IMG/VR virus record: IMGVR_UViG_3300033070_001161
Coordinates: 1 to 64,000 of that record
From: a virus
Taxonomy: Duplodnaviria > Caudoviricetes
Strand: one strand, 5' to 3'
Length of the DNA: 64,000 nucleotides
Shown here: piece after piece, positions 21,601 to 40,452 of the stretch
How the letters are laid out: every line of letters starts with the position of its first letter
Position numbering within the stretch: the stretch's first letter is position 1
Notes under the pieces: model-generated
What the model saw: only the letters and a program-made list of their open reading frames with translations
What the model was told of the DNA's origin: nothing
Database searches by the model: none
Position numbers and translations under genes: made by a program

Positions 21601-24600
21601 ATCTGGAATCAGTGGTGGGGGATGAATACAGTAGGGTGGCAGATTTATCGCATCAGCTTACAAAAGAACTTATGGAAGACATTACATCAAAGATTTTGAA
21701 TAATTTCTTTGGTGCTAATGCTACATTATCTTTAGCTAATTTATCAGATAATAAGGAAATACCATTAGATGCCTATTACGATGCTATCAAACCTATGTTA
21801 GCTAATAAATTTGTATCAATTGGTAAACAAGCCCTCACTGAAGGTGATGAAGAACTTGCTCTTAATTTTTTAAGTATTGCTGATAATATCACCGATAATT
21901 GGGATGATGTTGTAAAATTAAATAAAGAATATTTAAAAACATTTGGTCTTACAAGCAGTCATGAACAGGCATCTGATAATCTTCCTGAAAAGGTGAAAGA
22001 AGCAAAACAGGCTGAATTTGAAGATGATAATGATGGTATTCAAGATGATGATGAACCTGAATTTGAACAGGAGAATAAATCTCAATTAGAATATGATAGG
22101 GATATATTTACAATTTCTGGTAAGAAAAACGCTTCTGCCGGAATAAGGTTATTATTTGCTACACTTAGGGATGCTAAATTTATTCGTCAGTCTAAAGATG
22201 ATGTGTCCGTAGTTCCAGCTATAGAATTTGAAAGATCATCACTTAATGGATTCAAATTTGTGCAATATGCAAGAGTATTCAATCAAGTAGCAAACGCATT
22301 AGTTAATACTAATAAGATGGAAAATCTTATTAAAAAGCTTGTCAACCATGCTAAAACAAATGCTCCTATTGTAGACCTTTTAAGTCCTAATAAATTAAAT
22401 ATAAATAGAACAACAGGTAAAATAAATTACAATTCATTATCATATAATGAATGGAGAATACTCTTGGATTTTGTAAAAACCATGAGTAAACAATCCCCTA
22501 ATGCCCTCATATATGATATGAAAGGTAATACAGCCAAGCTTATTCCGGGTAATAAATATTCAGGAATTGAGCAAATTAAGAGGAATTTTGTAAAGAATGT
22601 AAAAAATAACAAAGAGTTATTCTCTTTTGATAAAAAGAAAAAGACATTTGTTGTCAATCCTGAATTCTTTAAAAAGAACCCAACACCAACCAATGACAAA
22701 GCATATATAGATTTTGCAAATTCTATAGGTATTAAAACTGTAGACGGTGAATTATTATCGTTGGCTATGTTAAAAGCTATGCCTTTATTTCAAAAAGCAA
22801 AATTCAAAAGTGCTTTATCTAGGGTGTATACTCAATTAAAAAAACAAGACCCTTTATTTGATACATCAAATAAGGCATTACAGATTGAAACTCCTCTGAA
22901 TGAAATAAGTATTGCTATCATTTCCGCAACAAAAGATGACGGTTCTAACACCTTCTTAAACGTACTGAGAAAACCAGTACAGTCAGTGGTGTTGAATAAC
23001 CCCCTGTCTACTTTCTTTAATAATTTCAATTCTGTTTCCTCTCTCGATAATCTGCAAAAAGAGGAGCAAGGACTTACTGATGGGTTTTCTAAAAACTCAG
23101 TGATATTACAAAGAGGTGGTAGATTCTTTAACGAAGATGGTGATCGTACAGATGAGAAGATTGAAGTGGGATATATTGACGGTATAAAAACTCCAAGAAA
23201 CTCTAAACAATCTTCTAAATTATCCCTTATTCAAAGAAGACTCCTTTCTTTCAACCTTAATTTACAAGGTTGGTTTGTTCCTATCACAAATGGTGATAAG
23301 AAAACAGAATGGATACTATCTTTAGGTAATCATATATCTTTCAACCAAGTGGTTGCTGGAACTCACTGGGATTCAATATATTCTATATTTCATAACTATC
23401 TGAAAACAGAAATGGAAGTAGCACAAGTAGACGATGCTAACACATTAGCTGTTCTGGATAAACAAAAAAGGCGTGGAAATCTGAGGTTTTTCCTCAATAT
23501 TCTTCCTGAAAATATTACAAAAAAAGCAAAAGTTGTAATAGATAATCTCGGAGATATTGATGAATTTATTGAAGAAAATGAGAAAAATATCAACAGTGCA
23601 ATACGTAAATTCTTAGAAAAAGAAGCTAGTAGAACACGTACAGAGTTCCAGATATATAATATATTAGCAGTAGATGACAACGGAAATTATATATTTGATG
23701 GAATTGATGAAAAATTCGTAATGGATAACATCAATGATCAGGGTGTAAATAAATTTAGTGAAGAGCAGGTTGATAATGTAATTCTCTATAGAACTGTTAA
23801 TCAGGTGATTAACAATATAGAAATGCATAAACTTGTTATTGGCGACCCTGCATTTATGTCTGATCCTGCAAAACGTATTCCCGGAGCAATGGGTGGTGTA
23901 AATCAGACTACATATGGATCACATGAATTTAATACGCATTTTTCAGCATTAGCAAATAGAACTGATGTTAATTCTAGCTCAATACAATTAGAACCTACTG
24001 ATTTAGGATACACTCCTTTCTCAGATGATGTTTCTATTGTAATATATCAAGATGTTATCGTAGAAGGTAGGGTAGAAGGTAGTGACTATAAGAACACAAA
24101 TGAAGTGGATGGTGGTTCAAAAATGAACCTTTCTGCATATAGAGAATTGAAAATAAGATCAGCAGAATGGACCGATGAACAGGAAAAACAATATCAATAT
24201 CAAATGGCATTCTTCAGAGATAGAATGTCAAAACAGGGAAAATATGACTATTCTTCAAAAGAATTAAAAGAACATGACGTTAACCTTTTAAAACAAGGTC
24301 AGCCTCAAGAAGGTATTTTTGAAATTATCAAACCTAAAGGATGGGGTCAGAATACAGCATCTCCATATAAAGATATAGTGTTCCTGAAAACATCAGCTCA
24401 ACCTATTATCCCTACTGTAGCAAAAGATACAAACGATGAACTTCTTCTTCTGAAAATGATGAATGAAGGTATAAAAATTGCAGCTTTTGAATCAGCAGTA
24501 AAAGTAGGGGTACGTAGCACTGAAGCAGCATATGTAGATGGTAAGTTTAATGAAAATAAATACAACCCCGATGCAATACTCTATCCTTCTTGGAAAGATT

Positions 24601-27600
24601 TAGGTATTCAGGTAGAAACCCAATTCTCTCAAGGTAAGAATAAACTGACATTAGGTAGTCAGCTTACAACACTCGCTACACTTAACCTGTTATCTGGTGG
24701 TGTACCACAAGGATTTACAGCTACAGAATGGAGCAAACTTTCTGAAGAAGAAAGAATGGCAAAATCTGAAATATACAGAGAGGTAGTTACAAATAATCAG
24801 ATTCTTGTAGAACTTACAAATAATGGATATGTAGAACTTCTCGATAAATTAGGAATAGAAGAAGATGAAGATGGAAATTATGAAATAGTTGATTATCAAC
24901 GAGTTGTAGATTTCCTTAAAGAACAGGCTCGTGACATGGATGATAATACAAAAGCTGCTCTTAAAGTGGACGATGTATTAAATTCATTAGCCGTACCTCT
25001 TGAGGCTATCCCTACATATACTCAATTGAAAGCAATTCTTTATTCTATTGTAGATAAAAACATAGCATCTCCTAAAACATCAGGTATTGGTTTAGTGCAG
25101 ATGCCGTCTACATTTACAGAAAATGAAGCGAGAACTACGCTTGTCGGTAATTCCACTTATAAATTCTATACAAAAGAAGAGCCTTGGATTGAGGTAAGTT
25201 TACCCGCATGGTTTAGAGATCATCTTGAGAGATTTTATATTAATAATAAAAAACCCATTCCTTCAGAAGAAGAGCTGCTCAAATTATTGAATGATACTGA
25301 TATATTAAATGGTATAGGTTTCCGTATCCCCACTCAGGAAATGAACTCTGTAGAGGTGTTTAAAATTAAGAGTTTTCTTCCTAAAGTGATGGGTAACACT
25401 ATTATTGTACCTTCAGAAATCACCACAAAAGCGGGTAGTGACTTTGACATTGATAAACTGAATGCGTATCTTAAAAATGTTATAATTACCAAAACGGGTA
25501 AAATATCCAAAGTAGCATCATTTAATTCTCAGGAAGAAGCCGCTGATCATTTTGGAAGTGAATATGAAAATACTATTCAGAAGGAAATCAATAAAATTGA
25601 AAAATATGAAGATTTCCGTGAAACTCTTTTAGCTGTATTCAATGCAATAGAAAATATCAAGGGTGATATTACCTTAGATAAAATCAAAAAAGCACTCAAT
25701 GAAAACCTTAAAGAATTCTATGATGTGCATATGACTCTTCTTAATGAAATTATAGATCAAGCTGCTGAAGAACAATTAAATCCTTCAGAATATATTCAGA
25801 ATCAGATAGATAGGCTTTCCCGTAAAAAAGGAAAACTTAATGCTAAGTTATTTAATGAACTGGCTAAAGAGATGTATATTAAAAAATATACAAGAAAATC
25901 TCTTGAAAACGCATACTACGAATCCCTCGAAAGGCTTGTTCAGCTTCCTGAAAACTTTGAAAGGTTGATACAAATCAACACTACAAAAAATCTTGAAGAA
26001 ATTAAGAATAACCTTAATAAGGCATTATTCACTGAGGATGAAATTAAACAAAATAACATCAATACAGGTGAAAAACTTGCATTGAACTATCTTCCTATTA
26101 TCTCACCTTACACTCTGGATGAAATCAGGCATAATCTGGTTACAGGTAAGGATGGTGTTGGTATTGCTGCTGCTGCTCAAAAGAGCAACTCAATTATGCA
26201 ACGTACTCAGGTAGTGATTGATCCAAGTAGAGTGAATCTCCTTGACGATATTGATCCATTAAGAACACAATTAATAGGTGATGGTGTTATACGTTTTCCT
26301 CATAATAAAATTAATGGAAAACCCACCATATCAATGTCTAAAACAGCAGATGGTAAAAAATATATTTCAGATATTATCTCTGAGTATATTAACGGATTTG
26401 TGGACGTTGTAAAGAATACATTCATTATTGAAATGGGTGTTACCACTCGTACAGCAGGTACGTTCTTATTTATGGATAGACTTGGTAATAACACTGAACA
26501 TACCACCTATTTTATGAACCAACCTATTATCAGGCAATATTTAAAATTTCTTGATAAAAACAAGATAAATGGTATTAGACATAAAGAAAGTATAGGTGAA
26601 ATTTACTCTACTTGGGGTGATGTTAAGTATACAGGAAACGACACGCTTCCTACAGCTAATCAATTACTGGATAATATTAAAGAATATAAAGGAAAAAATA
26701 GGGATTTTAAGAATTTATCTCCTGAATTTGTAGAAGAGCAATCTAAAATATTTAATGAATTCCTGAAATATCAGGAGATGGCATCTGATTTATTTACCCT
26801 TATGCAGGGTATAAATTGGGATACAGCCCACATGTCTGATCCTGAACAATTCCTTCTGAAGGATATTAATTACGATAAGGCAAACAACACCATATTCACT
26901 CCTGCTTCAGAGATATTGAAGAATGTATTTATTGGAAATACACGCCAAAAATTGATGGATTCTAGGAATGCAATAGGTGGTTTTATAGCCATAGAACATC
27001 CTAATGTACGTGAAGTGCTAGATACATTAAAGCGTAAGTTCATTAGTATGAGCTTCTTCCCCAAGCCTGATGTATATAGTGCTATTGCTAAACGTATAAA
27101 TAACTCCTTTTTAAACTATATCTTACAGGTAAAAGGTGGATATAACAGAACTCAGATTGAGCAAGTTCTTTTGGATGAGCAAAATGGAGCAGCTTCACTA
27201 CTTGAAGATTTACAAATTGCCACTAAAAAAGATTCTGTTTTACATTCAATTCTGAAGCAATTCTCCATTGAAAGAAGAGGTAATGATGCTAATAGTGTAA
27301 AAGCTATTATATTCAAGAAAAGTGGTAATGATAAATACGACAGAGATACTGATATTGACAATTTCAGAATTTTAAAAGAAAACGCATACACTCAGGAATT
27401 ATATAAAAAACTGGTCAGGGCAGCTCTTTTACAATCTGGTGTACAGTATTCTCCTATTTCATATTCACATTTAATACCTTCTGAAGACTATGCAAAAGCA
27501 CTATCTAGTCTTGTGAATAATCTGTCTACATACACCGATCTGGATAAATTCCTCACATCTAAATCATTTGCTAGAAACAACTGGAGTAATTCAGATGTAG

Positions 27601-28721
27601 CTAAACCGTTGACAATCAGTGAGAAAATGAAGGGTGTATCAGATATGGGTACAGTGTGGGCTATTCCGTTTATTCTTCCTAAACAACTTTCTAAGTTCCC
27701 TAAAGGATCAATAATGAAATCAAGAATGTTCTTAGGAGAATATGCTAAGTATCAACCACTTAACTCAATGGGTAGAGAAATGGCTTTTGTGCCCGATCTT
27801 ACATATATGATAAATAAAAAGGATGCGTTTGAGAAAAACAATCCTATTTTAACAAAAACATATCTCTACGAAATTGTCAAAGACGAAATGGGTAAACCTC
27901 TTACAATTACAGAAAATTACAAAAATAAACAAGATGAAGAGGTACAAAGTGTAAGTTATCTGTATAAAGCAATCAATGCTTGGGGAGATGGTATGTATGC
28001 ACAAGAGTATTATGATGCTGAACGTTCTTCACAAATTGAAAATAATACATTCAAAGTGGATGAAACAGTAGTAAATGATACAGCTATTTATACAGCATTA
28101 CGTGGAAAATCTGTATCTTTGCAAAGTAAAAAAGAAATTAAAACAGAGCTTATAGAATCTTCTAATAAAGTAATAGAAGGAGATATCTTTAGTATAAAAG
28201 GAATTCCTGTTATTACCACTAATTTAGGAGGTGTTCATGGGGCAGGATTAGCGCAAAAAGCTAAAAGTAAAGGTCTTATCAAGCAAGGAGATGGTTTATT
28301 TAAAGCAAATAATAACGTTGTTCAACTTCCTGTAAAAAAAATATGGAGTGATAATATGGCAATGAACAACAATATGAAACTACTTGCAGAAAGTCTTAAT
28401 AAATTAGTAAAAGTAGCAAATGAAAATAAAAATAATACGTATTTATTACCACTCGCTGGACTAGGGCATGGTGAAGGAAAAGTCAGTGAAATAATGCCAC
28501 TTTTAATTTCAACGTTACAAGCTTCTGAAAATATTAAATTAATATTACCTACAGAAGATATTTCTTTAGGTAGACAAGCTACTGTAAGAAAAGATGAAAC
28601 TAGAAAAAAACTACCTGAAATAAAAACAATGTTAGAAAAAGCAGGATTTATTAAAAGTAATAAGATAAATACTTCTGATAATAAATCAACTCAGGATAAA
28701 ATAAACGACTGTTTAGGATAA
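15630..28721 (+). CDS. Giant virion-packaged multidomain RNA polymerase (crAss-like, double-psi beta-barrel) with zincin-like and C-terminal macrodomain
   Basis: 4363 aa; GFRIPTQ followed by GSDFDIDKL catalytic motif (DFDID at 25440-25454); YHEAFE...EKLADEF at 21252; macrodomain at 28170-28550; N-terminal Gly/Ala-rich hydrophobic helices. Confidence 0.9.
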   Translation: MPEDQLPNINSPLEDKLASIQNDWTKSQFSGNGNSKGGDPTSTLLKKMNGVMSAKESYSTPDIVSPNIIDVSGRYPKQLVGWDNEDLYGDAQSGWSQAWRGIVKGVALAGTTFLQGTLGLVYGLGAAAGTLELNKLFNNDFSNAIDDFNKMLENQYLQNYYTKRERDAKWYEPANLFSTNFIFDKFVKNLGFSIGAIYSGAAVAKALRMIPAISSLFTGEKAAATLAQIESKLSTVPALQRTDEMYNMLIKASDAATKAAKFGSGVERTVIGTLGAVTEGGIEALQGLNEYRNSLIDNYIATNGVAPVGDELDKINDLSSSLGNSRFLLNIGLLSATNYIMLPKILGSSYKTSKSLANKEINNIVKNQEGKWVSALSQAPRVEKFIRKSTNVAELFFSPTEGFEELSQYAIERGVNDYYSKAYKGEGRSFANSMLAGYDQAINSNEGMEQFLIGALSGGMQQAGIVGTYQNEKGQTKVGIGKSGNIGERGITGTGGERGRNTTSFLAQMNDPKNQMRFKSDTWVKDMVDATARGINLQKEGEAFIRQGDVLEAKDNEADYMHNYLAVRIKHGRYDLVQDDIENFRQQAASPEGLNMLKQQGYANENDTQQTFLARVNNFEKHAKNIDSLYQSLNMVYGAKINQDGQRVYSDEVIDKMVYVGSKIADYEQRIPELSQQLLSNQIVLGDTLSNIYKNGVPSADAVKDAIKQIDDLSVIDSKKDELKQSLRDVIELTGRRKEFLDEFKKLKTSPESFTTVTEPTTTTATTDKKKIKLKTKDGEEELEVGTEYFAGSQVIESKEGVVYEKFPRFTIIGENEDGSVKIKTSNGDILDVKKDAFSKYKFGKVSDTEKHPNAMFYVEASDTIFTFNMGKKDKNPRGRLSYDPKTDKLYFITLDGKKTIAVTRDQFSPKKGYSIAQIYSSDKLTPKAEEALKQEVNLSEIQEKREARLKIISELREAAYDRLDKLTDKISQKKEQLEGVEKNLKELEEKLQKDDNFRKNGKGFKKAGKEVIRQLNILSGMRTLLSREIEELTAEQEEVEFNISYFEDMGQNIDELPTDSKDFIEELNNQVLDLQILYEETGKQINYLSGVLSKVEDALKTAVDFALNLIQKFEKKYPGLPIAPEALRSFLNKDLEFKGTWPDYQSYLTANPNLLSDLREFDRELADIDDLDVIPNERSVKELQDNIADLNKQLAQYEKEIKAKSAILDKFEDIAKEYKRKEEAKRQYEKDKALHDALFKAQSQLSEQPSDDSTDDELAKIETKDKEASKKKDLSIYPISTIAPSRETDPEFENKPHLLREEKFLNNYAAGLLKDENGNDITPDLRVLVIHRNNQAKYGLDGLVELRNPKQADESEEAYDKRLTNAESGTILYLYIKKGEGEWEVIDENGKKIGSFDNEFNPSGIDINKVVTSTAPAAKISLKAGSFTNKDNLNLAEVEKAWLEKRKQLLEEGDLLTVSGVSRGVKQVTSTSDKNPITPTLTDSKTVDKQQVIFVSTSDVINTPNDTIYYKAGRPYFQIGDNVILLNNRNINEKEADAIFLVLKEVATKFQESIKANRPNLDKQLVDWLNSIIYWYSPSEKNPTAHNHQIYVKSGKLFISGVDTGIYFNPDSLDANRKPIIETFLKGNTAGRGTYHHVSHKNLSSDQPYIEYYTEDGKTLKTREHKSYQHYLIANNVVSTNVRPQMSDTDSNIRGRYAITDMELSLPKEDVKPPKVEKKEEVVQSSGKPDKLAEALAVLAANKAKRQAKKEGAAAEEKEEKSIVPSKANRLKSTDTVSVSIKAADLLAKLNGKGFVGTDSNDEEYRRVVEKSIDNVKKEDIAAVKAWFAKNLPNVPLNIVEHILKTTDGGFAWGKFSSVGVTMYEKAKEGTGYHEAFEAVWKMFIPVEDKQKIVSEMRRRKGSFYDAITGQNTEYKSATDTQLKEKLADEFAEYVQTNGAISEKIKGQPWIIRIFRALKELFEKLVSPQNNIDQLFRNINSGQYATKPVNLESVVGDEYSRVADLSHQLTKELMEDITSKILNNFFGANATLSLANLSDNKEIPLDAYYDAIKPMLANKFVSIGKQALTEGDEELALNFLSIADNITDNWDDVVKLNKEYLKTFGLTSSHEQASDNLPEKVKEAKQAEFEDDNDGIQDDDEPEFEQENKSQLEYDRDIFTISGKKNASAGIRLLFATLRDAKFIRQSKDDVSVVPAIEFERSSLNGFKFVQYARVFNQVANALVNTNKMENLIKKLVNHAKTNAPIVDLLSPNKLNINRTTGKINYNSLSYNEWRILLDFVKTMSKQSPNALIYDMKGNTAKLIPGNKYSGIEQIKRNFVKNVKNNKELFSFDKKKKTFVVNPEFFKKNPTPTNDKAYIDFANSIGIKTVDGELLSLAMLKAMPLFQKAKFKSALSRVYTQLKKQDPLFDTSNKALQIETPLNEISIAIISATKDDGSNTFLNVLRKPVQSVVLNNPLSTFFNNFNSVSSLDNLQKEEQGLTDGFSKNSVILQRGGRFFNEDGDRTDEKIEVGYIDGIKTPRNSKQSSKLSLIQRRLLSFNLNLQGWFVPITNGDKKTEWILSLGNHISFNQVVAGTHWDSIYSIFHNYLKTEMEVAQVDDANTLAVLDKQKRRGNLRFFLNILPENITKKAKVVIDNLGDIDEFIEENEKNINSAIRKFLEKEASRTRTEFQIYNILAVDDNGNYIFDGIDEKFVMDNINDQGVNKFSEEQVDNVILYRTVNQVINNIEMHKLVIGDPAFMSDPAKRIPGAMGGVNQTTYGSHEFNTHFSALANRTDVNSSSIQLEPTDLGYTPFSDDVSIVIYQDVIVEGRVEGSDYKNTNEVDGGSKMNLSAYRELKIRSAEWTDEQEKQYQYQMAFFRDRMSKQGKYDYSSKELKEHDVNLLKQGQPQEGIFEIIKPKGWGQNTASPYKDIVFLKTSAQPIIPTVAKDTNDELLLLKMMNEGIKIAAFESAVKVGVRSTEAAYVDGKFNENKYNPDAILYPSWKDLGIQVETQFSQGKNKLTLGSQLTTLATLNLLSGGVPQGFTATEWSKLSEEERMAKSEIYREVVTNNQILVELTNNGYVELLDKLGIEEDEDGNYEIVDYQRVVDFLKEQARDMDDNTKAALKVDDVLNSLAVPLEAIPTYTQLKAILYSIVDKNIASPKTSGIGLVQMPSTFTENEARTTLVGNSTYKFYTKEEPWIEVSLPAWFRDHLERFYINNKKPIPSEEELLKLLNDTDILNGIGFRIPTQEMNSVEVFKIKSFLPKVMGNTIIVPSEITTKAGSDFDIDKLNAYLKNVIITKTGKISKVASFNSQEEAADHFGSEYENTIQKEINKIEKYEDFRETLLAVFNAIENIKGDITLDKIKKALNENLKEFYDVHMTLLNEIIDQAAEEQLNPSEYIQNQIDRLSRKKGKLNAKLFNELAKEMYIKKYTRKSLENAYYESLERLVQLPENFERLIQINTTKNLEEIKNNLNKALFTEDEIKQNNINTGEKLALNYLPIISPYTLDEIRHNLVTGKDGVGIAAAAQKSNSIMQRTQVVIDPSRVNLLDDIDPLRTQLIGDGVIRFPHNKINGKPTISMSKTADGKKYISDIISEYINGFVDVVKNTFIIEMGVTTRTAGTFLFMDRLGNNTEHTTYFMNQPIIRQYLKFLDKNKINGIRHKESIGEIYSTWGDVKYTGNDTLPTANQLLDNIKEYKGKNRDFKNLSPEFVEEQSKIFNEFLKYQEMASDLFTLMQGINWDTAHMSDPEQFLLKDINYDKANNTIFTPASEILKNVFIGNTRQKLMDSRNAIGGFIAIEHPNVREVLDTLKRKFISMSFFPKPDVYSAIAKRINNSFLNYILQVKGGYNRTQIEQVLLDEQNGAASLLEDLQIATKKDSVLHSILKQFSIERRGNDANSVKAIIFKKSGNDKYDRDTDIDNFRILKENAYTQELYKKLVRAALLQSGVQYSPISYSHLIPSEDYAKALSSLVNNLSTYTDLDKFLTSKSFARNNWSNSDVAKPLTISEKMKGVSDMGTVWAIPFILPKQLSKFPKGSIMKSRMFLGEYAKYQPLNSMGREMAFVPDLTYMINKKDAFEKNNPILTKTYLYEIVKDEMGKPLTITENYKNKQDEEVQSVSYLYKAINAWGDGMYAQEYYDAERSSQIENNTFKVDETVVNDTAIYTALRGKSVSLQSKKEIKTELIESSNKVIEGDIFSIKGIPVITTNLGGVHGAGLAQKAKSKGLIKQGDGLFKANNNVVQLPVKKIWSDNMAMNNNMKLLAESLNKLVKVANENKNNTYLLPLAGLGHGEGKVSEIMPLLISTLQASENIKLILPTEDISLGRQATVRKDETRKKLPEIKTMLEKAGFIKSNKINTSDNKSTQDKINDCLG

Positions 28722-28736
28722 AACAATAAAATAATT

Positions 28737-29426
28737 ATGGCCTGTCCCAATATAAACTCTCCTCAGTGGAAGGATTTAGTAAGTAAAATAGGTGTATTTG
28801 AAGCAATGAGAGAATTCATCAAAAATGGTGAAGAAATCCCAGATGCTGCAAATTATCAAGAAACATTTTCAGGTATTAATGCTACGTTAAAAGTAGTAGG
28901 AGCACTCCAGAAAATGACAAGAAACTCGTATCCTTCCAATCAGGTACAAGGATTTTATAATGACTTGATAAAATTAGGTACACCTAAGAATCAATTAGAT
29001 TTATTAAAAGACCATATAGAAAGGAATAATATAAAACAAATCAATGTTAATGATTTGATTGTCAGTATTTTATCTGAAATGAACTACACAATTGAAATTA
29101 ATACTGCTACAACAAGTTTAAAAAGAGATTATGATGAGGGATATGAATTTTCTGAAGAAGAGTTAATGAGAGGTCCACAATCAGAAGATTTATTAAAAAA
29201 ACCAAGACCAACTACATATTATGCTAATTTAACTGTACCGGGAGGTACTAATTATACAGAAAATGAAATAGCTACACCAGCTATTGTTCCTTCTATTAAA
29301 GGACATGCTCAATTTTCTACAGATAATGGTATTGGATGGTTTCGTTCAGATGACAAACATCCCTTTACAGGATTTTTAGAAGATTTAATTGCTTCGGGAA
29401 CAATAAAAAAAGCACCTTGCGAATAA
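28737..29426 (+). CDS. N-terminal fragment of a split RNAP-cluster cargo protein
   Basis: Starts MACPNINSPQW; ends in the first half of a polyvalent-protein-type domain (VPGGTNYTENEI...GHAQF...GWFRSD) plus a tail ending APCE. Confidence 0.7.
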   Translation: MACPNINSPQWKDLVSKIGVFEAMREFIKNGEEIPDAANYQETFSGINATLKVVGALQKMTRNSYPSNQVQGFYNDLIKLGTPKNQLDLLKDHIERNNIKQINVNDLIVSILSEMNYTIEINTATTSLKRDYDEGYEFSEEELMRGPQSEDLLKKPRPTTYYANLTVPGGTNYTENEIATPAIVPSIKGHAQFSTDNGIGWFRSDDKHPFTGFLEDLIASGTIKKAPCE

Positions 29427-29911
29427 TGAAAACAGGAATATATAAAATAGAAAATAAAATAAATGGTAAATTTTATATAGGAAGTGCTGTACATTTCTAT
29501 AATAGAAAATCTGACCATTTTAGAAGATTAAGATTAGGTATTCATAAAAATACTCATCTTCAAAATTCTTATAATAAATACGGCAAAGAAATTTTTACAA
29601 TGTTTTTAATAGAAGAATGTATTAAAGAAGATTTACCTATAAAAGAACAATATTATATTGATACTTTAAAGCCTGAATATAATATTTGTTTAAAAGTAGA
29701 AGGAAGATGGGGTTTAAATCATACAGAAGAAGTTAAATCTAAAATTTCAGATTCTGTAAAAAAGTTTCATAGAGAAGTTGGACATTCTGAAGAGACTAAA
29801 AGTAAAATTGCTAATGCCTTAAAAGGTAGAAAACAATCTTCAGAAACTATTGAAAAACGTAGACAAGCTAATATTAAAGCTTGGGAACTTAAAAAATTAA
29901 ACAATAATTAA
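29426..29911 (+). mobile_element. Free-standing GIY-YIG homing endonuclease with NUMOD3-like repeats
   Basis: GIYKIENKINGKFYIGS, E...ID...PEYN, H[TS]EE[TV]KSKI repeats; probable start is the TAATG overlap at 29426 (ORF track starts at 29417). Confidence 0.9.
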
Positions 29912-29913
29912 CT

Positions 29914-32900
29914 ATGGCTTGTTACGAATATAAAGGTGTAAAATATACCGAAGAAGATTTAGTAAAATTATTACAATCCCAGCAACTAAAAACAAGACGC
30001 ATTTTGGAGCTCCAGTCAGATTTATTTCAGAAAGGTAGGGATGAAAAAAAAGCACTTGCTTGGAATAGATATATTTTAGATAATAAAGGTGATGTTATAG
30101 GAGAAAATCCCAATTTTCAATCAGAACAAGATTTTTTAAATTTACTTAGAAAAGACAATAACTGGGTAACATTCTTTGTTAAATCTATTATACAAGATAG
30201 TGCTAAAAAAGGATATGAAAAAGTGTTATTTCCTTCTGGAAATACAGCTAGTAAAGTAGAAGGTCATACTACTTTAGAAGAATTTAAGAAACAGAAAGAA
30301 AATAGGATTAAAAAACTTGAAAAACAAAGACTGGCTTTAGAAGATGAAGCAGAAAACAATACCGCTGTAGATTCTGATGGTGGTGAATATGATTATACAG
30401 AGGAATTTGAGAATATTGACACCGAGATTTATCAACTTAAACAAGAACTTAAAAGAATAGAAGAGGAGGGCTTTGGTGCATTATTACCTATTTTCAAATT
30501 TTATGAAGAAACAGTAACCAATGTACTCAAAAAACAAGGATACAATCCTACTCAAATCACTGATGAATATGGTAATACATGGAATGAAGTAGAAATAAAT
30601 GAACTTGCAAATAACACTATATTATTTCAAAAACAGGGAATAAAACAATCTAAAGCATCTGCAAAAACGATAGCTAAGGTAAAAGAATTCCTTAAAAGAA
30701 TAGGCGTAGACATACAAGCCCTCGATACAGAACGATATGGAGGTATTAATGGTGTTGCCAATTTCTTAGAAGGATTCATACAACTTGCAGAGGGTAAAGA
30801 AGATGTTGCTATCACTGAAGAAGCAATGCACTTTCTTGTAGAAATATTAGAACTTACCAATCCTACATTATTCAAACAAATGATGAATAAGATAGGTAAG
30901 TATAACGTATTCTCAAAAGTAATGAAATTATATTCACAAGACTCTGAATATCAAACAGATGGAAAACCTGATATTCTTAAGCTTAAAAAAGAAGCTATAG
31001 GTAAACTCCTTGCTGAATATTATATACAGTCTGAAGATGGTCAATCTGAAGCTCCTGATTTGATGATTCAAACAAAATCATGGTGGGAGCAGATCATTGA
31101 CGCTATTAAGAAATTCCTGAAAATTGCAGATTTTAATCCTTTCCAAGAAGCATTAGATAGTTTTAATGACTTAAATAACACAAATTCACCTACAAAAATA
31201 TTAGCTAAAAGGATATTAGATAGTTTGTCAGATGACAATATGTTTAAAAAAGCCATTAAAGATACATACGATAATGGTGATTATAAAGCTGTAGTAACAA
31301 CCTTCTATCAACAACTTACAGATAAGTCAGTATTTGGTATGAGTCCTTATGAATCCACTGTAAAAATGCTTGGTGGAAATGAAGAATTGGCTAAAGATAT
31401 TATATCTTTAGGTAATCCTTTTTATCAATTATCTGAAGAAAAAAGAAAAAAACAGCAAGAAATTGCAAATTCTTTCGATCAAAAACTTAAAGATTTTGAG
31501 ATAAGGAAAGTGACAGGTAAAGCTGAATTTGAAGAGCAAGATGATATAAACTACTATGAGCGTAAAAGAGATGGTAAGATAGGTAAGGTGGCAAAGCGTG
31601 TAACGGATTTTGTTAAAGAAACAAAACGTCCCGATGTTCTTGCAAAATTTGAAAATGCTTCAGCCAAAGAAAAGAATACATATAAACAAAAAGCAGAATA
31701 TGGTACAGCATTTCACAATGATGCTGAATCAATTATAAAAGCATCCCTCACTTCTGATGGATATTTAAAACCTATTGATCAGATTAATGTAGATGCTATC
31801 ACTCCAAATCTTCCTCAAGCTGGATTTTTGGCATTAAAGAACTATCTAGTTGGTGAAATAGACAATGAGGGTAATATCATTCCGGGTATATTATATACAC
31901 AATTTCCAACAGGAACTCTCTTCAAAGTCGAGCAAATTATCTACGATGAAAAAAGAGACGTTGCTGGAACAATTGATCTTATGGGTATCACTCCCGAAGG
32001 TAAGATAATGATATATGATTGGAAAACCAAATTCCTTGATACAAAGAAATTTGACGATGTTCCTTTCTATTCTCAGGCGGATTATAGAATACAGCTTGCT
32101 CAGTATAAAGCAATGATGTATAGATATGGATTAAAACCTAAAGAGGACGTTATTGTAGCTCAGGCAATTCCTATCGTATATAAAGGTAAGATAGACTCTT
32201 TAAATGGGGATGTCACCCTTACAGATATAATATTTCCAGAAATAGATATAAAACAAGAAACTAGACGTTACCTTCTTCCTGTACCTATTGCTGAACAATC
32301 TTCAGGAAATACAAAAGTAGACCAATATATTGATGCACTTAACCAATTATATCAGGTTTTGTACAAACAAAAAGATGTAAATAAAGAGCTTAAAAATGAG
32401 CAATTAAATGCAATTTCTGGTGCAATTCGTGAATTACAGGTGAAACAAGAATTTGGTCCTCTTGCAGAACAAGGACTTATTTTCTTAAAAAGTGCAGAAC
32501 GTGTTATAGAAGATATAAACACTCAACTGAAAAATGAAGATGGTACTTATAAGGAAATTGATCCTAAACAAGTAGATGAGTATTCAAAAAAACTGAAACT
32601 TATAAACGACAATATCCACAAATATCAGTCTACTTATCAGTTATTCGATGAATTATATGGCGATAAAAATCTTACAGAATATCAGCAGGAAACCTATAAT
32701 AAATTAGAAAGATTATCATTGGATAGTGGTAAGATTGCATCTAAAATTAATACGGAATATATAAATTTTGTTAAGCAATATTATACGTCAAAAGAAGGAC
32801 TTGATATATTAAAGACAGAAAAACCAATTCAAGGTTTACTGGATAGGTCTATTCAAAGCTTATCTCGAATGCAAAATGTTGCTCTCCAATATCTTAGGAG

Positions 32901-35484
32901 TGTTACAGCTAGAGCAAACTTTCAAAAGCAAAGAGATGCAATAAAAAGACAGGAAGAACTTAGAAAATTACTAGATGCTTTCAAAAAAACAGCTCAGGCT
33001 AGAGGATTATCTCCTACAAAATATTTTACACTCCTTGTCAGTAAGAACAAGAAAGGTGATCCTATGAACCAACTTATTAAAAAAATTAAGACTGAGTTCT
33101 ATACAGAATTTGAAAAAGCAACAAAAGACGAACCTGATATAAACTGGATAAAACAAAATATAGACCTTGATAAGTATATTGAGGATAAAGAAAAAGTTAT
33201 TCAGAAAATGTTTGATCAGATTGATGCTAGTATATATAGTTCTAATTCTAAAGAGGACGCTAAACGCAAAGAGGAAAAGAAAGAAGATATTATCAAAATG
33301 TATTCTTTCGACACTCCAAATGCGTTAGGGTGGTATAGGCAAGACCTCAAATATTATATAAAGGATGAGAGTAAATGGGAAACAGATGAATATAAACAAA
33401 TGTCTAAGGATAAATCTATTTTAGACTTATACGATTTTATCATAAAGCTCAATAAGGAAGCTAAAGATATGGGATATCATGATGACAAAACATCGTTGAG
33501 ATTTCTCCCTTGGATGAGAGCCTCTATGCTCGACAGAATACGTACTTCTGGACTGTCAGCAATAGGCGATAGCATGGAATATCTATATAAACTTACTCCT
33601 GAAGAAGAAATCAGCTATTCTAAGGTTGATCCTAACACTGGAACAATTGAGAAATCTATTCCTGCATTTTTTACAAAAAACTTTGCTCCTGAAATAAGAG
33701 ATGCTGATGGAAACATAGAAGGATATGATTTATCAGATGTATCTACAGATTTAGGAGAAACCCTACCTATGTATATAGAAGCTTTATATGAATTTAAATC
33801 TTTATCAGATATTGAACAATCTGTAAAAGCTGTACGTGACGTAGAAGCCGCTAAAAAAGCGTTCCTTTTAGATGAAAAGGGTAGAATTGTTAAGGAAAAA
33901 GGAACAAATATAAACAAATTAGCTAATGATAATGAGGCAAATGTAAAACTCTATGATAGTTTTGTAGAGGCTATTTTATATAAAAGAACATATGATAGTA
34001 CAGCAAATCTGTCTACAGGGGCTACAAAAACCATCGAAAAAATGAACCAATACTTCAGATTGAAGGTGTTTGGTTTAAACATATTTACTCCAATCACCAC
34101 ATTTATTGGTGGTAATTTACAAGCTCTTATAAATTCAAGAAAGCTTTGGAGAGGACAGCAATTTTTAAAAAATGAAATGAAAATTGTCGGTAATCTGTTT
34201 AAAGGGGAAGAAGGTAATATAGAAAAAGGACTTATTGATTACTTTATACCTTTTACTGAAAATAGGGCAAAACTGAATGCGGAAAGAATGTCTTTTGAGA
34301 AAATTCAAAGATTTTCATTTTCTGATTTCATCATGGCTCCTATTAGAAAGACGGATATAATGGTACAAATGGCTACATCTCTTACAATGCTTGAAAATAC
34401 AGTGTTGATTGATGGTGAATTAGTAAATGCTCGTGAATATATCCTTAACAGTAAAGAATATAGAGATCGCTATAAAGACTCATCTCAGTTAAAATCTTTA
34501 GAAAAAGACTTTGAAAAGAAAGTTAAAGAACTCGTTGATTCTAAAGGAGTTATGAAGTTTGCTAAGTTTAATAAGGACGGTCTTCTTGAAATAGAAGGAG
34601 TGTCAAGAGATTCTGATACTGTTAATAGATTGAGGCTCAGGATGTTAGATGAAATTAAAAATCTTACAGGTAACTTAACAGAAGAAGACAAACGAGATGC
34701 AGATAGAAACATTCTCCTCAAATCAATGATGATGTTTAAAAACTGGATTCCTAGACTTGCTGCTGTAAGATTTGGAGATTTACAGAAAAATATTGATGCT
34801 AACCAATATGAAATGGGTAGGGTGAGAATGGTATATCAAGTGATCAAAAATGGAGACGGGGGGTGGATAAAAGGACTTACTAATGGTATACGTGATCTTA
34901 GAAATATGGTGGCAGGTAATGAGGAAGGTCTTAAAGTCCTTGCAAAATACTATGAACGTACTGCTGAAAGTTATAAAAATAAGACAGGAAATGATCTAGA
35001 AATGACTCCCGAAGAATTCTATGATATGACTCGTAGGGCTATAGAACAAACAGCAAAAGATGCTGCTCTTTTAGCTACATTTATGACTATGTTTATTTAT
35101 GCAAAATCAACACCACCCGATGATGATGATAGTGATGAAAATAAGAATTTTTATAAAATTTCTGTAAGAATGCTGGATAAACTGACAGATGAGATTTCAT
35201 TCTATTATAATCCTCTTTCATTACAACAGATTTCTACAGGTTCTTGGATGCCGTCTATAGGTATATTAACAGACGGTATTAAGTTTTCAGGAAGTCTTAT
35301 AAAAGAGGTGGGTGGACGTACATTTGGTGTAGAAAAATGGGAAGAAACTGCACATCCCACTAAGAATTTTTTAAATATGATCCCTATAGCTAATCAGTTT
35401 TTTAAGACATTTATACCAGTTATTAACCCTGATATAGCTAAAGATTTGGATATACGAGTATCTACAGAATCTCGTAGAAACTAA
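29914..35484 (+). CDS. Large RNAP-cluster cargo protein (C-terminal part of the split gene) with zincin-like and PD-(D/E)xK nuclease domains
   Basis: 1856 aa; MACYEYKG head then KTRRILELQSD; EEAMH at 30817; GTAFH...E...AGTIDL...IYDWKT...QLAQY at about 31700-32120. Confidence 0.75.
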   Translation: MACYEYKGVKYTEEDLVKLLQSQQLKTRRILELQSDLFQKGRDEKKALAWNRYILDNKGDVIGENPNFQSEQDFLNLLRKDNNWVTFFVKSIIQDSAKKGYEKVLFPSGNTASKVEGHTTLEEFKKQKENRIKKLEKQRLALEDEAENNTAVDSDGGEYDYTEEFENIDTEIYQLKQELKRIEEEGFGALLPIFKFYEETVTNVLKKQGYNPTQITDEYGNTWNEVEINELANNTILFQKQGIKQSKASAKTIAKVKEFLKRIGVDIQALDTERYGGINGVANFLEGFIQLAEGKEDVAITEEAMHFLVEILELTNPTLFKQMMNKIGKYNVFSKVMKLYSQDSEYQTDGKPDILKLKKEAIGKLLAEYYIQSEDGQSEAPDLMIQTKSWWEQIIDAIKKFLKIADFNPFQEALDSFNDLNNTNSPTKILAKRILDSLSDDNMFKKAIKDTYDNGDYKAVVTTFYQQLTDKSVFGMSPYESTVKMLGGNEELAKDIISLGNPFYQLSEEKRKKQQEIANSFDQKLKDFEIRKVTGKAEFEEQDDINYYERKRDGKIGKVAKRVTDFVKETKRPDVLAKFENASAKEKNTYKQKAEYGTAFHNDAESIIKASLTSDGYLKPIDQINVDAITPNLPQAGFLALKNYLVGEIDNEGNIIPGILYTQFPTGTLFKVEQIIYDEKRDVAGTIDLMGITPEGKIMIYDWKTKFLDTKKFDDVPFYSQADYRIQLAQYKAMMYRYGLKPKEDVIVAQAIPIVYKGKIDSLNGDVTLTDIIFPEIDIKQETRRYLLPVPIAEQSSGNTKVDQYIDALNQLYQVLYKQKDVNKELKNEQLNAISGAIRELQVKQEFGPLAEQGLIFLKSAERVIEDINTQLKNEDGTYKEIDPKQVDEYSKKLKLINDNIHKYQSTYQLFDELYGDKNLTEYQQETYNKLERLSLDSGKIASKINTEYINFVKQYYTSKEGLDILKTEKPIQGLLDRSIQSLSRMQNVALQYLRSVTARANFQKQRDAIKRQEELRKLLDAFKKTAQARGLSPTKYFTLLVSKNKKGDPMNQLIKKIKTEFYTEFEKATKDEPDINWIKQNIDLDKYIEDKEKVIQKMFDQIDASIYSSNSKEDAKRKEEKKEDIIKMYSFDTPNALGWYRQDLKYYIKDESKWETDEYKQMSKDKSILDLYDFIIKLNKEAKDMGYHDDKTSLRFLPWMRASMLDRIRTSGLSAIGDSMEYLYKLTPEEEISYSKVDPNTGTIEKSIPAFFTKNFAPEIRDADGNIEGYDLSDVSTDLGETLPMYIEALYEFKSLSDIEQSVKAVRDVEAAKKAFLLDEKGRIVKEKGTNINKLANDNEANVKLYDSFVEAILYKRTYDSTANLSTGATKTIEKMNQYFRLKVFGLNIFTPITTFIGGNLQALINSRKLWRGQQFLKNEMKIVGNLFKGEEGNIEKGLIDYFIPFTENRAKLNAERMSFEKIQRFSFSDFIMAPIRKTDIMVQMATSLTMLENTVLIDGELVNAREYILNSKEYRDRYKDSSQLKSLEKDFEKKVKELVDSKGVMKFAKFNKDGLLEIEGVSRDSDTVNRLRLRMLDEIKNLTGNLTEEDKRDADRNILLKSMMMFKNWIPRLAAVRFGDLQKNIDANQYEMGRVRMVYQVIKNGDGGWIKGLTNGIRDLRNMVAGNEEGLKVLAKYYERTAESYKNKTGNDLEMTPEEFYDMTRRAIEQTAKDAALLATFMTMFIYAKSTPPDDDDSDENKNFYKISVRMLDKLTDEISFYYNPLSLQQISTGSWMPSIGILTDGIKFSGSLIKEVGGRTFGVEKWEETAHPTKNFLNMIPIANQFFKTFIPVINPDIAKDLDIRVSTESRRN

Positions 35485-35550: not shown

Positions 35551-36219
35551 ATGGTAAATAAAATTATTTACAAAACAGGACAAAAATTAGGCAATTTAGA
35601 ATATATCTCTGAAGTAGATGCTCATGTTCGTCCCAACGGAGGAACTAGAAGAAAAGCCATATTTAGATGCAATTGTGGGAAAGAATTTATATGTTTAATT
35701 GAAAGTATTAAGTATGGAAATACTACATCTTGCGGATGTTTAGTAAATCGAAAAGGCGGTAAAACCACACATGGACATACAACTAAGGTAAATAATCTAA
35801 GAACTACAGAATTTATTATATGGCAGGGTATGATTGCAAGATGTGGTGGTTATAAAACAGGTAGAAAGTATAAACGTTATGCTGCTAGGGGAATAAATGT
35901 ATGTGAGAAGTGGTTAAATTCTTTTGATGATTTTTTAAAGGATATGGGGTTTAGACCTAGTAAAAATCATAGCTTAGATAGGATAGATAATAATGGAAAT
36001 TATTGTCCAGAGAACTGTAGATGGGCAACAATAAAAGAACAAAATAGGAATAAATCTACTAACAGATTAGTTACTTTTAATGGTAAAACTCAATGTATTT
36101 CGGATTGGGCAGAAGAAATAGGTATAAATAGAGCTACATTATATGATAGAATTGAAAATTGGCCAATAGAAAAGGCATTGACAACTCCATTAATGAGAAA
36201 AAATAAAAATATCGCATGA
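35551..36219 (+). mobile_element. Free-standing HNH-type homing endonuclease
   Basis: CNCG...TTSCGC zinc motif, YAARGINVCEKW, SLDRIDNNGNYCPENCRWAT..EQNRN, C-terminal HTH. Confidence 0.85.
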
Positions 36220-39041
36220 CTTGTAATACTATGCCAAATATAAATAATCCATGTCCCATATACGTAAAAGCCAAATGTGTAGTTTATACAGGTGTAAACC
36301 TAGACTGCATAGAAGCTACTACTAACGAACGTTTGGATTCGATTTTATCAAAGATTAATGATAAATTATGCGCTGTAGGCACTGGTGTTTATTTAACACC
36401 GGGAACAAATATATCTATTACAGGAACTGGTACTGAATTTAACCCATATGTAATAAATTCAACATTTAGTGGGTGGAGTATTAATGGTAATAGTGATACT
36501 ACATCTGCTAATTTCTTAGGAACTACTACTTTACAACCACTTGTATTTAAAGTAAATAATACACATGCCGGATTTATTTCTGCAAGAACAGGAAATCCTG
36601 CTGCTGTATCTGGAAGTGTTATTCTTGGGCAATTTGCAGGTAGAGATTTAGGATTAAATAATGGTGCAAATACTATCATAGGACATGGAGCAGGTACTTT
36701 TCTAAAATACGATCCTTCAAAAGGGAACCAAAATACATTCATTGGAATGTGGGCAGGCCATGCTACTAAATATCATAGTGATCCATTTGGAGGACGTAAT
36801 GTATTTGTTGGTCAATCTGCTGCATTTAGAAACTACAATGGTTCTTCATTAACTTATGTGGGAACTTTTGCCGGAGAGTTAAATAACCAAGGTAATAGCA
36901 ATACAGGATTAGGTAGGGACGCACTTCGTTCAAATATTGATGGTAGTTTTAATATTGCAGTGGGAGGATTGGCTTCTTTGTATAACACTACAGGTATTAA
37001 AACTATTGCAATCACAAATGGGGGAAGTGGGTATACATTTGCAAATGTAACTATTTCTGCTCCTCCTGCAATAAGCCCCGGTGTATATCAGGTGACAGCA
37101 ACTGCTACAGCTACTGTTTCTGGTGGACAAGTAATAGGTATAACAATAACTAACGCCGGAGGTGGTTATTCTCTCCTTACAGGAGAAGGTGATTTTCATA
37201 CAGGTATTACAGTAACTATTACAGGAGATGGTACAGGAGCAACCGCATCTGTCACTGAAACTAAATCAGGAATAGGTAATACTACTTTAGGATTTGCTGC
37301 CGGAATGAATAATAATTACGGCAGTTATAATGTAAACATTGGTTATCTTACAGGAAATAGAACAGAAGATAGTTATACAACATTAGTAGGAACATCAGCA
37401 GGAATAGGATCAGGCGCACCGACCACTATAACAGGAGCAATAGCAATTGGATATAATTCTAAAGTTTCCGCTGATTATACTATGGCTCTTGGAGGAACAG
37501 GTTCTTATGCTGTTAATGTAGGTATTAATACGGAAACAGCAAGAAAGAAATTGGATGTGGTGGGTGGAGATATTCTTGTACACGAGCATACAATAGGTAG
37601 AGGAGCAGGTTCAATCGCTACAAATACTGTATTTGGTACAAATGCATTAACAGTTAATACAACATCTTCACCAAATAATGTTGTGATAGGATATGAAGCC
37701 TCTAATACAGGTAATGTATCATACGGATTTAATACAATTTTAGGATATAGAGCAAATTATAGCGGTAGCTATAGTGGAGCTGCCAATACTATTATTGGTG
37801 CTGAAGCAGCTTATCTGAACCATGCTCAACAAGCAGTTGCTATAGGTTTTAGAGCAATGTATACTCAAGGTAGTAATGGATCAATAGCTGTAGGTGCTTA
37901 TTCTCTTTATAATAATGTACACAATGGATCATCTGCAAGACAATGGAATACTGCTGTTGGTGAATATACACTTTATAATCTTGGTGGATTAGGTATTCCT
38001 CAAGTAAATACTGCAATAGGAGGATATGCAGGATATGGAATAACAGCAGGTTCTTATAATGTTGCAATTGGTTCATTATCAATGGGTAAAGGATGGAGTG
38101 GTGTAGGAACAGCAGGTTCTTCAGGTAATCATAACGTAGCTTTAGGACATGCTGCCCTATATTATATAAATGATTCTACAGGTAATATTGGACTTGGACA
38201 TAATGCATTTTTTAATAGTGCATTTGCTCCTACTATAGGATATAATATAGCAATAGGATATAATGCTGGTATTGATATCACCACAGGTAACTATAATGTA
38301 CTATTAGGAGGATATTCTGGTGTTGACTACGCTACATTATCAAACTATATCGTGTTTTCTGATGGTGAAGGAAACCAAAGATTTAATGTAAATAGCTCTG
38401 GTAAAATGAGAATTTTCTCATATGGAGCAGGAACTCATACAGGAACAGCTACTTATAACTTATCTGTAGATACTAATGGTAATGTTATTGAAACAGCTAT
38501 ATCAGGAGGATCATATACATTTGAAAATGGGTTAACAGAATCATTAGGAAATGTTCATCTTGGAGGCGTTCTTATAGAGAATACAACTATAGACGGTTCT
38601 GAGAATATATATGATATGATATTTGCAAATGTTGATTCATTTGCAATACAAGATACTACTTCTTTTGATATAAATACTTTAGCTAGTGCTACAAACGGTA
38701 TGTCAATAAGAGGTAAAATTGCTATAAAAGGAGCAATGTCACCTGCTCAAATAACTTCAGATCAGAATAATTATTCCCCTACAGATTTAAATTTACATTC
38801 AGTACTTCGCATTTCTTCAGATGCATCAAGAACAATTACAGGATTGGATATAGGTTATGAAGGTAGAATTATTTACATTTTTAATGTAGGTACAAATAAT
38901 ATTATACTTTCTAACGAAAATGCTTCGTCTACCGCAGCAAATAGATTCAAAATAGGATCAGATATAACAATTGGTGCAGATAGAGGAGTACAATTATGGT
39001 ATGATACTACATCTAGTAGATGGAGAGCTGTAAGTATTTAA
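36216..39041 (+). CDS. Tail fibre/spike with YadA-head-like repeats
   Basis: Many N(T/V)(A/F)IG..A repeats, Gly/Asn/Thr-rich, GGSGYT insert, C-terminal beta domain ending WYDTTSSRWRAV. Confidence 0.75.
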   Translation: MTCNTMPNINNPCPIYVKAKCVVYTGVNLDCIEATTNERLDSILSKINDKLCAVGTGVYLTPGTNISITGTGTEFNPYVINSTFSGWSINGNSDTTSANFLGTTTLQPLVFKVNNTHAGFISARTGNPAAVSGSVILGQFAGRDLGLNNGANTIIGHGAGTFLKYDPSKGNQNTFIGMWAGHATKYHSDPFGGRNVFVGQSAAFRNYNGSSLTYVGTFAGELNNQGNSNTGLGRDALRSNIDGSFNIAVGGLASLYNTTGIKTIAITNGGSGYTFANVTISAPPAISPGVYQVTATATATVSGGQVIGITITNAGGGYSLLTGEGDFHTGITVTITGDGTGATASVTETKSGIGNTTLGFAAGMNNNYGSYNVNIGYLTGNRTEDSYTTLVGTSAGIGSGAPTTITGAIAIGYNSKVSADYTMALGGTGSYAVNVGINTETARKKLDVVGGDILVHEHTIGRGAGSIATNTVFGTNALTVNTTSSPNNVVIGYEASNTGNVSYGFNTILGYRANYSGSYSGAANTIIGAEAAYLNHAQQAVAIGFRAMYTQGSNGSIAVGAYSLYNNVHNGSSARQWNTAVGEYTLYNLGGLGIPQVNTAIGGYAGYGITAGSYNVAIGSLSMGKGWSGVGTAGSSGNHNVALGHAALYYINDSTGNIGLGHNAFFNSAFAPTIGYNIAIGYNAGIDITTGNYNVLLGGYSGVDYATLSNYIVFSDGEGNQRFNVNSSGKMRIFSYGAGTHTGTATYNLSVDTNGNVIETAISGGSYTFENGLTESLGNVHLGGVLIENTTIDGSENIYDMIFANVDSFAIQDTTSFDINTLASATNGMSIRGKIAIKGAMSPAQITSDQNNYSPTDLNLHSVLRISSDASRTITGLDIGYEGRIIYIFNVGTNNIILSNENASSTAANRFKIGSDITIGADRGVQLWYDTTSSRWRAVSI

Positions 39042-39678: not shown

Positions 39679-40452
39679 ATGAAGGTTTGTTGGGTAACTT
39701 GTTTTGCAGGAAGACACGATAAAGTAGAAAGAGTAATCAAATGTTTTATGGATCAGGTATATGACGATTATATGTACCTACTACTTTATAATAATTCAAA
39801 AAATCATCAATTTCTAGATTTTATAGAAATGCCTGAAAATAAACAAATTATATTAGTTAATAACTATTTGGACAAAGAATCAGGTAGTGAATATACCAAT
39901 ACAGGAGCAATATTTAGAGACGCTCTTACATTCGTACCAGAAGATGTAAATATTATTAATTTTGCAGATAGTGACGATATATTCCTACCAAACCATACAA
40001 AAGAAGGAGTAAAGGGATATAAAGATGCAATTTCTATAAATCCTGCTTTTAAAGCATATAAACCATTTTTTTCATATTATTTACATGATGATAATCAAGT
40101 AGATAAAGCTCACAATAATATGGAGCCTTCAATTTTTGTTAATTTTGATTATGTAAAAAATACAGGTTTTTATTATGTTCCTGCATCATATCATCAAAAA
40201 TGGTTAACTCCTTTACAGAAGAACTATAATATATACCAACCTTTAAAAGGTGTACCTACATTCCTATATTGTTGGGAATCAGGTCATAATACACATAAAA
40301 TATCAGGACTTGGAGATCACGCTGATAATTTTACAAATCATCGAAAATTTGAAGTAGATGATGGTGATAGTGTACTATCTCCGGCTTTAAACTACGAAGT
40401 GGAGAAATATTATACATTAATAAAACAGAAACAAATTGCCAATTTTAAATAA
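39679..40452 (+). CDS. GT-A fold glycosyltransferase (GT2-like)
   Basis: N-terminal VTCFAGR..VERVIKCFMDQ, FADSDDIFLPNH DxD motif; start at ATG 39679 preferred. Confidence 0.75.
   Translation: MKVCWVTCFAGRHDKVERVIKCFMDQVYDDYMYLLLYNNSKNHQFLDFIEMPENKQIILVNNYLDKESGSEYTNTGAIFRDALTFVPEDVNIINFADSDDIFLPNHTKEGVKGYKDAISINPAFKAYKPFFSYYLHDDNQVDKAHNNMEPSIFVNFDYVKNTGFYYVPASYHQKWLTPLQKNYNIYQPLKGVPTFLYCWESGHNTHKISGLGDHADNFTNHRKFEVDDGDSVLSPALNYEVEKYYTLIKQKQIANFK

Follow-up and report, generated by a model that had tools for sequence, protein, structure and literature searches.

Paired terminal cysteines follow the breaks of a crassvirus virion RNA polymerase block: candidate disulfide clasps, one of them apparently brought by a homing endonuclease cassette

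Where the virion RNA polymerase (RNAP) block of a crAss-like phage is broken into separate proteins, the two ends that face each other across the break almost always carry a cysteine (Cys) each, and the interiors of the pieces are nearly free of this residue. We describe the pattern in positions 1 to 64,000 of IMG/VR record IMGVR_UViG_3300033070_001161 (64,000 nucleotides (nt), G+C 32%; this whole stretch is called the window below), which belongs to a crAss-like phage, and in 80 related loci. The explanation that we consider fairly probable is that inter-protein disulfide clasps concatenate the RNAP block, and that the second of the two clasps in the window came with an endonuclease cassette. 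No phages of the human gut are more abundant than crassviruses. What holds such a huge polymerase cargo of several proteins together, and how it is packed and delivered, has yet to be explained (PMC10172136), and a comparison with phage N4 has been called for (PMC13434306).

The genes of the block, with lengths in amino acids (aa), are as follows:

9635-13075, + strand: cargo-like protein, 1146 aa, one of two directly upstream of the chain
13129-15630, + strand: cargo-like protein, 833 aa, the second of the two
15630-28721, + strand: virion RNA polymerase, 4363 aa, with a two-barrel RNAP motif, collinear with crAss001 gp47 and gp50
28737-29426, + strand: 229-aa protein, the N-terminal fragment of a split gene whose homolog is unsplit in most relatives
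29426-29911, + strand: free-standing GIY-YIG/NUMOD3 homing endonuclease, 161 aa (PF01541, 1e-8; NUMOD3, 6e-7; phrog_314, 2e-32)
29914-35484, + strand: 1856-aa protein, the C-terminal fragment of the same split gene, from its similarity to the unsplit protein of relative L081

In the 6448 residues of the 4363-, 229- and 1856-aa proteins, together referred to as the chain, the counted translations hold four Cys, at residues 4361, 3, 228 and 3, in agreement with the original prediction that each would lie no more than three residues from a terminus. The sole Cys of the polymerase is residue 4361 (codon 28710-28712, in the ending ...KINDCLG), two residues short of the C-terminus. The 229-aa protein has one Cys at residue 3 (28743-28745, MACPN), within a conserved start M-x(1-3)-C-[PI]-N, and another at residue 228 (29418-29420, in the ending ...KKAPCE), and the 1856-aa protein has its sole Cys at residue 3 (29920-29922, MACYEY). 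With four Cys placed at random in 6448 residues, an arrangement that puts one no farther than three residues from each of the four facing termini has a probability of about 1e-12. The Cys content of most remaining open reading frames (ORFs) in the window is about 1-3%. The two cargo-like proteins were also predicted to be without Cys, and the translations bear this out for the window (none in either the 1146- or the 833-aa protein); no terminal Cys is found in them in the window or in relatives, and the pair is outside the clasp system.

The place of these proteins in a crassvirus virion is suggested by comparison with cultured phages. On the window, crAss001 gp47 matches residues 89-1995 and gp50 matches residues 2820-3634 of the 4363-aa protein, and gp49 matches residues 255-414 of the 1856-aa protein; the window thus has the order of the Crassvirales cargo block, with gp47, gp50 and gp49 collinear after two cargo proteins. 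The 4363-aa protein carries the catalytic two-barrel RNAP motif DFDID (DFDxD type) at residue 3271, and this region aligns with phi14:2 g066 (E 7e-24) and crAss001 gp50 (E 5e-23). By homology to crAss001 and phi14:2, we infer that the proteins of the window block are present in the virion and ejected from it. PHROGs returned no family for the 4363-, 1146-, 833-, 229- and 1856-aa proteins, Pfam returned only weak, sub-threshold matches to DUF6046 and PD-(D/E)XK, and the 229-aa protein matched nothing when compared with cultured phages by tblastn. An AlphaFold2 model of the 229-aa protein is confident at residues 1-120 and poor in the remainder, and a Foldseek search with this model, confident only for residues 1-120, found no match in the PDB at E<=0.001.

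The 80 relatives are IMG/VR loci with 10-kb flanks, in which all + strand ORFs and their Cys were mapped. Junctions between long Cys-poor ORFs were tabulated, their flanks were classed by BLAST to the window proteins, and a junction was scored as paired when Cys was present both in the last 8 residues of the upstream piece and in the first 8 residues of the downstream piece. Paired Cys were found at 55 of the 57 distinct junctions that have chain pieces on both sides. Of the two exceptions, L109 has a wrongly chosen start codon (its real start is MACIN...), and L128 has two frames that overlap as in a frameshift, its Cys-less junction probably not being a true break. Both Cys are also present at 14 further junctions in which one flank could not be recognised by BLAST, and both are present at none of the 22 non-chain junctions (cargo to cargo, cargo to chain start, and chain end to next gene). 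After correction of the L109 start codon no junction has a lone Cys.

In the upstream piece 0-5 residues separate the clasp Cys from the C-terminus, and in the downstream piece the clasp Cys occupies position 3-7 from the N-terminus. When the last 200 aa of the upstream pieces are aligned (mean identity 12%), the Cys of the upstream piece is the sole invariant column, and the aligned downstream pieces share C3 and N5 without exception. In the chain interiors 73 of 319,276 residues are Cys (0.023%), and there are unbroken giants of 5133 aa (L145), 4447 aa (L149) and 2779 aa (L134) without any Cys. Two other relatives (L144 and L147) have no Cys at the equivalent of junction 1, which is the junction between the polymerase and the 229-aa protein of the window. 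The positions of Cys across relatives had been named beforehand as a test of the pairing, and in the relatives terminal Cys are conserved and paired at breaks and are absent where the pieces are fused. As features of the sequences, the pattern, its conservation and its strict link to breaks are established by these comparisons, which also indicate that the clasp at junction 1 is native and conserved family-wide.

Breaks occur at many positions in the chain, some with an endonuclease gene and some without. A recurrent tag pair, G-x-[IL]-x-[KIV]-x-C-x(stop) upstream and M-x-C-K-Y-x-Y-K-G downstream, is found also at breaks that are free of endonuclease genes, including that between phi14:2 g067 and g066; the other type of downstream start is M-x-C-[PI]-N...W/Y..L. 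A GIY-YIG catalytic domain is present in nine of ten inserted ORFs tested, and the ORF in junction 1 of L083 has a weak NUMOD-like match only. This last ORF (L083:9466-10014, 182 aa, the weak NUMOD-like match being of I-HmuI type) is located exactly in junction 1, between ...KIKDCLGGK(stop) and MSCPN; endonuclease genes would therefore land in native junctions as well. Four relatives have an insertion of another kind at a clasp (L113:11896-14917, L120:8121-11082, L139:835-4297 and L143:2-7503). In these a conserved extension (...YPTHKEGG...GLVIPKN) comes after the tag Cys (...LEIDC), next an ORF of 594-783 aa with a CHGC motif (no Pfam family in the L113 ORF, which was the one tested), and then a piece starting M-A-N-C-I-Y-K-Y-K-G.

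The second junction of the window, between the 229- and 1856-aa proteins, has a different history. Its two Cys do face each other, as originally predicted, but across a gap filled by the endonuclease and not at a plain junction, and the prediction had overlooked this 161-aa gene and had taken its neighbors for two native proteins. The endonuclease ORF takes up the entire gap: its ATG overlaps the TAA that ends the 229-aa ORF (TAATG), and 2 nt separate its own stop codon from the next ATG; its one Cys is internal. Around it the following features were delimited:

29358-29423, + strand: C-tag, the last 22 residues of the 229-aa fragment (...SGTIKKAPCE), not found in unsplit relatives
29914-29988, + strand: N-tag, residues 1-25 of the 1856-aa fragment (MACYEYKGVKY...), part of the cassette
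about 29110-30500 (limits approximate), + strand: mosaic patch of about 1.3 kb, from DNA comparison with L081 and L085

The 229-aa protein corresponds, in most of the 80 relatives, to the N-terminus of a protein of about 1900-2400 aa. The closest relative, L081, is unsplit at this site and has no Cys there. Residues 1-207 of the 229-aa protein match residues 1-210 of the L081 protein, and residues 26-1856 of the 1856-aa protein are 91% identical to residues 441-2306 of the same unsplit protein. From these matches the 229- and 1856-aa ORFs are halves of one gene cut by the homing endonuclease. DNA identity between the window and L081 is 97-100% at 28658-29108 and again from 30499 on; across 29297-29927 the window is 90-98% identical to L085, which has no DNA-level similarity elsewhere. 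The endonuclease shares 92.5% identity with its counterpart at the same site in L085, whereas the flanking host protein is only 43-58% identical. Because the L081 backbone is near-identical and unsplit and the patch matches the otherwise dissimilar L085, the C-tag, endonuclease and N-tag form a cassette that very recently replaced a variable linker and whose source was a distant lineage. The C-tag is common to L085, L086 and L094 (...GTIKKVPCG), and in L086 and L094 tags held in common with the window (87-89% DNA identity) enclose a different GIY-YIG gene, of 174 aa. Both Cys of the second junction belong to the imported tags, and it is on the same comparisons that the endonuclease origin of the second break is established.

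The linker at the cassette site appears to be an insertion hot spot. At this site L081 has a 230-aa insert (residues 211-440; L081:10631-11320) with a P-loop-like GHPTIGKS motif, and in other relatives the linker is only about 36 aa. An AlphaFold2 model of the N-terminal 500 residues of the unsplit protein of L083 has a mean predicted local distance difference test (pLDDT) score of 59 and does not place the break inside or outside a domain.

Splicing at the second junction was considered in two forms. A group I intron around the endonuclease was rejected, as there was no Rfam match at E<=1 in 28500-30200 and the ORFs leave no non-coding space. A split intein or 'fractured gene' was judged by its defining features, an N-intein that begins with Cys/Ser (blocks A and B) and a C-intein that ends in HN before a Cys/Ser/Thr. 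It was rejected on the lengths available, one residue after Cys228 and two before Cys3, and because Pfam, searched at E<=0.01, returned neither a Hint nor an intein family. The split-intein idea was also taken up for the 'MANC' starts and the L113-type Cys that lies 63-66 aa before the end, and was dropped because the preceding residue is unconserved and intein blocks are absent.

The cultured crassviruses have the same terminal Cys in RNAP blocks that are homologous and collinear with the 4363-aa protein and the 229/1856-aa pair of the window. In crAss001, gp47 (2341 aa) has its sole Cys at 2339, gp50 (2412 aa) has Cys at 5, 1334 (internal) and 2404, gp49 (1349 aa) has its sole Cys at 5, and gp46 has none. 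Unlike the window, crAss001 has two proteins, gp47 and gp50, with a break near window residue 2000, where the window protein is continuous and Cys-free. In phi14:2, where g067 and g066 stand in place of the one 4363-aa chain, g067 ends in its only Cys (residue 1797), the polymerase of solved structure, g066, has Cys at residues 3 and 2179 of 2180, and g065 has a single Cys, at residue 3. Since crAss001 gp47 is encoded on the strand opposite gp50 and gp49, the Cys pairs follow the order of the protein chain and not gene neighborhood, and a gene-junction signal at the DNA level is ruled out by this gene order. The sequence rule predicts joined ends in the orders gp47-gp50-gp49 and g067-g066-g065.

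Proteins of the RNAP block have been detected in crAss001 virions by mass spectrometry (PMC10172136), and likewise, according to database record notes, in those of phi14:2. The crAss001 virion has inter-protein disulfides in the tail and portal vertex (PMC10172136). The crAss001 atlas makes no mention of Cys in gp47, gp49 or gp50, although both reduced and non-reduced virions were analysed (PMC10172136), and Cys is not mentioned in the phi14:2 preprint or in the survey of crAss-like genomes (PMC7886860).

A bond of the proposed kind has been seen in another phage. In the pre-ejectosome of cyanophage A4, cryo-electron microscopy revealed a disulfide between gp27 Cys1715 and gp26 Cys5, in which a C-terminal helix lies in a cleft, a docking that the disulfide only 'further stabilises' (PMC12002296). 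In the record of this phage (Anabaena phage A-4L) gp27 is 1717 aa and gp26 is 1114 aa, with one Cys each, at C-2 and N5. As in the window, these are consecutively encoded, virion-internal proteins with a single Cys each in tail-to-head arrangement; A4 differs in that it offers a single pair, from one phage in a different family, neither a polymerase nor a homing endonuclease is involved, and the pair was not described as a rule that follows breaks. From the A4 structure and the crAss001 virion disulfides we infer the disulfide chemistry of the clasps. The original prediction knew of no description of such an arrangement; this was mistaken insofar as the tail-to-head disulfide of A4 is published (PMC12002296), and it stands insofar as no paper was found on the rule in Crassvirales. 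What was known before, then, is a tail-to-head disulfide of ejection proteins, seen once, and what appears new against the literature searched is the break-following rule in Crassvirales.

The N4-like phages (Schitoviridae) also package a giant polymerase in the virion, deliver it through a narrow tail and have almost no Cys in it. The N4 polymerase, however, belongs to a different polymerase family and is a single unbroken chain of 3500 aa, and it has no terminal Cys because a single chain has no breaks. The near-absence of Cys in the ejected proteins of N4-like phages has been ascribed to passage through the periplasm (PMC11445570), and the N4 polymerase has been likened to 'beads on a string' and proposed to lose its fold, or to be only loosely folded, as it is ejected (PMC13434306).

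Under the disulfide explanation, Cys4361 of the polymerase would be joined to Cys3 of the 229-aa protein (clasp 1), and Cys228 of the 229-aa fragment would be joined to Cys3 of the 1856-aa fragment (clasp 2), the latter clasp having arrived with the GIY-YIG cassette. Each clasp would most likely be an inter-chain disulfide, formed in the assembled or released virion once the terminal tags dock. The clasps would tie the cargo pieces end to end into a nearly linear chain like that of the unbroken giants or the N4 polymerase, and internal Cys would be selected against so that only the intended pairs form. Ordered threading of this chain through the tail and its reduction in the cytoplasm are speculative, as is the stoichiometric packaging put forward in the original prediction.

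Several points weigh against this explanation. The bond has not been observed in any crassvirus, and A4 is an analogy only, because gp26 and gp27 have no sequence similarity to the window chain (BLASTP best E 0.14). One break, at L159:3065-3274, is flanked by Cys neither upstream, where the piece ends ...VTKSQVFKRE(stop), nor downstream, where the next begins MKVEINSL... after a gap of 208 nt; it is the sole unexplained exception in the set. The exclusion of Cys is incomplete, there being 5-9 internal Cys in L121, L104 and L123 as well as Cys1334 of crAss001 gp50, and the tag Cys is not always terminal, being followed by an extension of 63-66 aa in L113, L120, L139 and L143. The cytoplasm of the producing cell is reducing, and many of the hosts are anaerobes. 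A disulfide may therefore form only after release, in which case it could not explain co-packaging, and if it forms only after lysis, co-packaging would require that the tags had already docked without a covalent bond. Splitting a protein also leaves ends that are neighbors in the fold, where any staple would be near-terminal, so that the position of the Cys alone is no proof of threading.

Docking of that kind, non-covalent or by way of a shared metal ion, may be all that the terminal tags do, with the Cys acting as ligands or packing residues of a small interface. The conservation of the motifs flanking the Cys, the reducing cytoplasm, and the A4 structure, in which the disulfide merely adds stability to the docking of a helix in a cleft (PMC12002296), are consistent with such an interface. 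We nevertheless regard it as unlikely, as a single Cys per terminus, with no conserved His or second Cys nearby, offers too few ligands for a usual Zn site, and the near-total loss of other Cys fits the avoidance of wrong disulfides better. Alternatively, each terminal Cys may bind not the neighboring piece but a third partner, which could be a capsid, portal or tail protein or a lipid. There are many disulfides among the structural proteins of crAss001 (PMC10172136) and N-terminal Cys clusters in other window proteins, such as the 941-aa ORF at 36216, but the chain Cys always occur in facing pairs that appear and vanish together with breaks, and the two outer ends of the chain, the N-terminus where it begins and the C-terminus where it finishes, never carry one, which makes a third partner quite improbable. 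An artefact or a feature of RNA or DNA is highly improbable: crAss-like phages do carry many group I introns and inteins (PMC7886860), but the searches and short Cys-flanking ends described above speak against an intron or a split intein here, the presence of the gp47/gp50 pair on opposite strands of crAss001 speaks against TGY codons in a junction signal, and chance is countered by the probability of about 1e-12 calculated for the window alone.

A wider version of the disulfide explanation, in which the Crassvirales RNAP cargo is a disulfide-concatenated pseudo-polyprotein and GIY-YIG cassettes spread with a Cys-tag pair of their own, so that the cut halves are stapled as protein, is possible and is put forward tentatively. 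If true, it would be a third way, besides introns and inteins, for a selfish nuclease to render its insertion harmless. In the T4-like phage Aeh1, nrdA is reportedly split by mobE. The window cassette resembles genes split by free-standing endonucleases in that a GIY-YIG gene interrupts a gene found uninterrupted in relatives and has a co-converted mosaic flank; it differs from them in the short Cys-bearing tag on each new end and in the proposed rescue, which is a protein staple and not splicing. An endonuclease-borne clasp, if real, would show selfish elements breaking up essential genes in a new way that the phage survives, and would provide a natural short tag pair for joining proteins end to end.

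Downstream of the chain, two further proteins of the window have Cys near their N-termini. In the 941-aa protein (36216-39041, + strand) all five Cys are within the first 52 residues (3, 13, 21, 31 and 52) and the other approximately 890 residues are Cys-free, and the 1239-aa protein (40436-44155, + strand) has a single Cys at 25. By analogy with the crAss001 tail, for which disulfides have been reported, the N-terminal Cys of the 941- and 1239-aa proteins may be disulfide anchors of tail or fibre proteins. Similar N-terminal Cys clusters are retained in the relatives (MNVTCSAE..., MRTAAICPT...).

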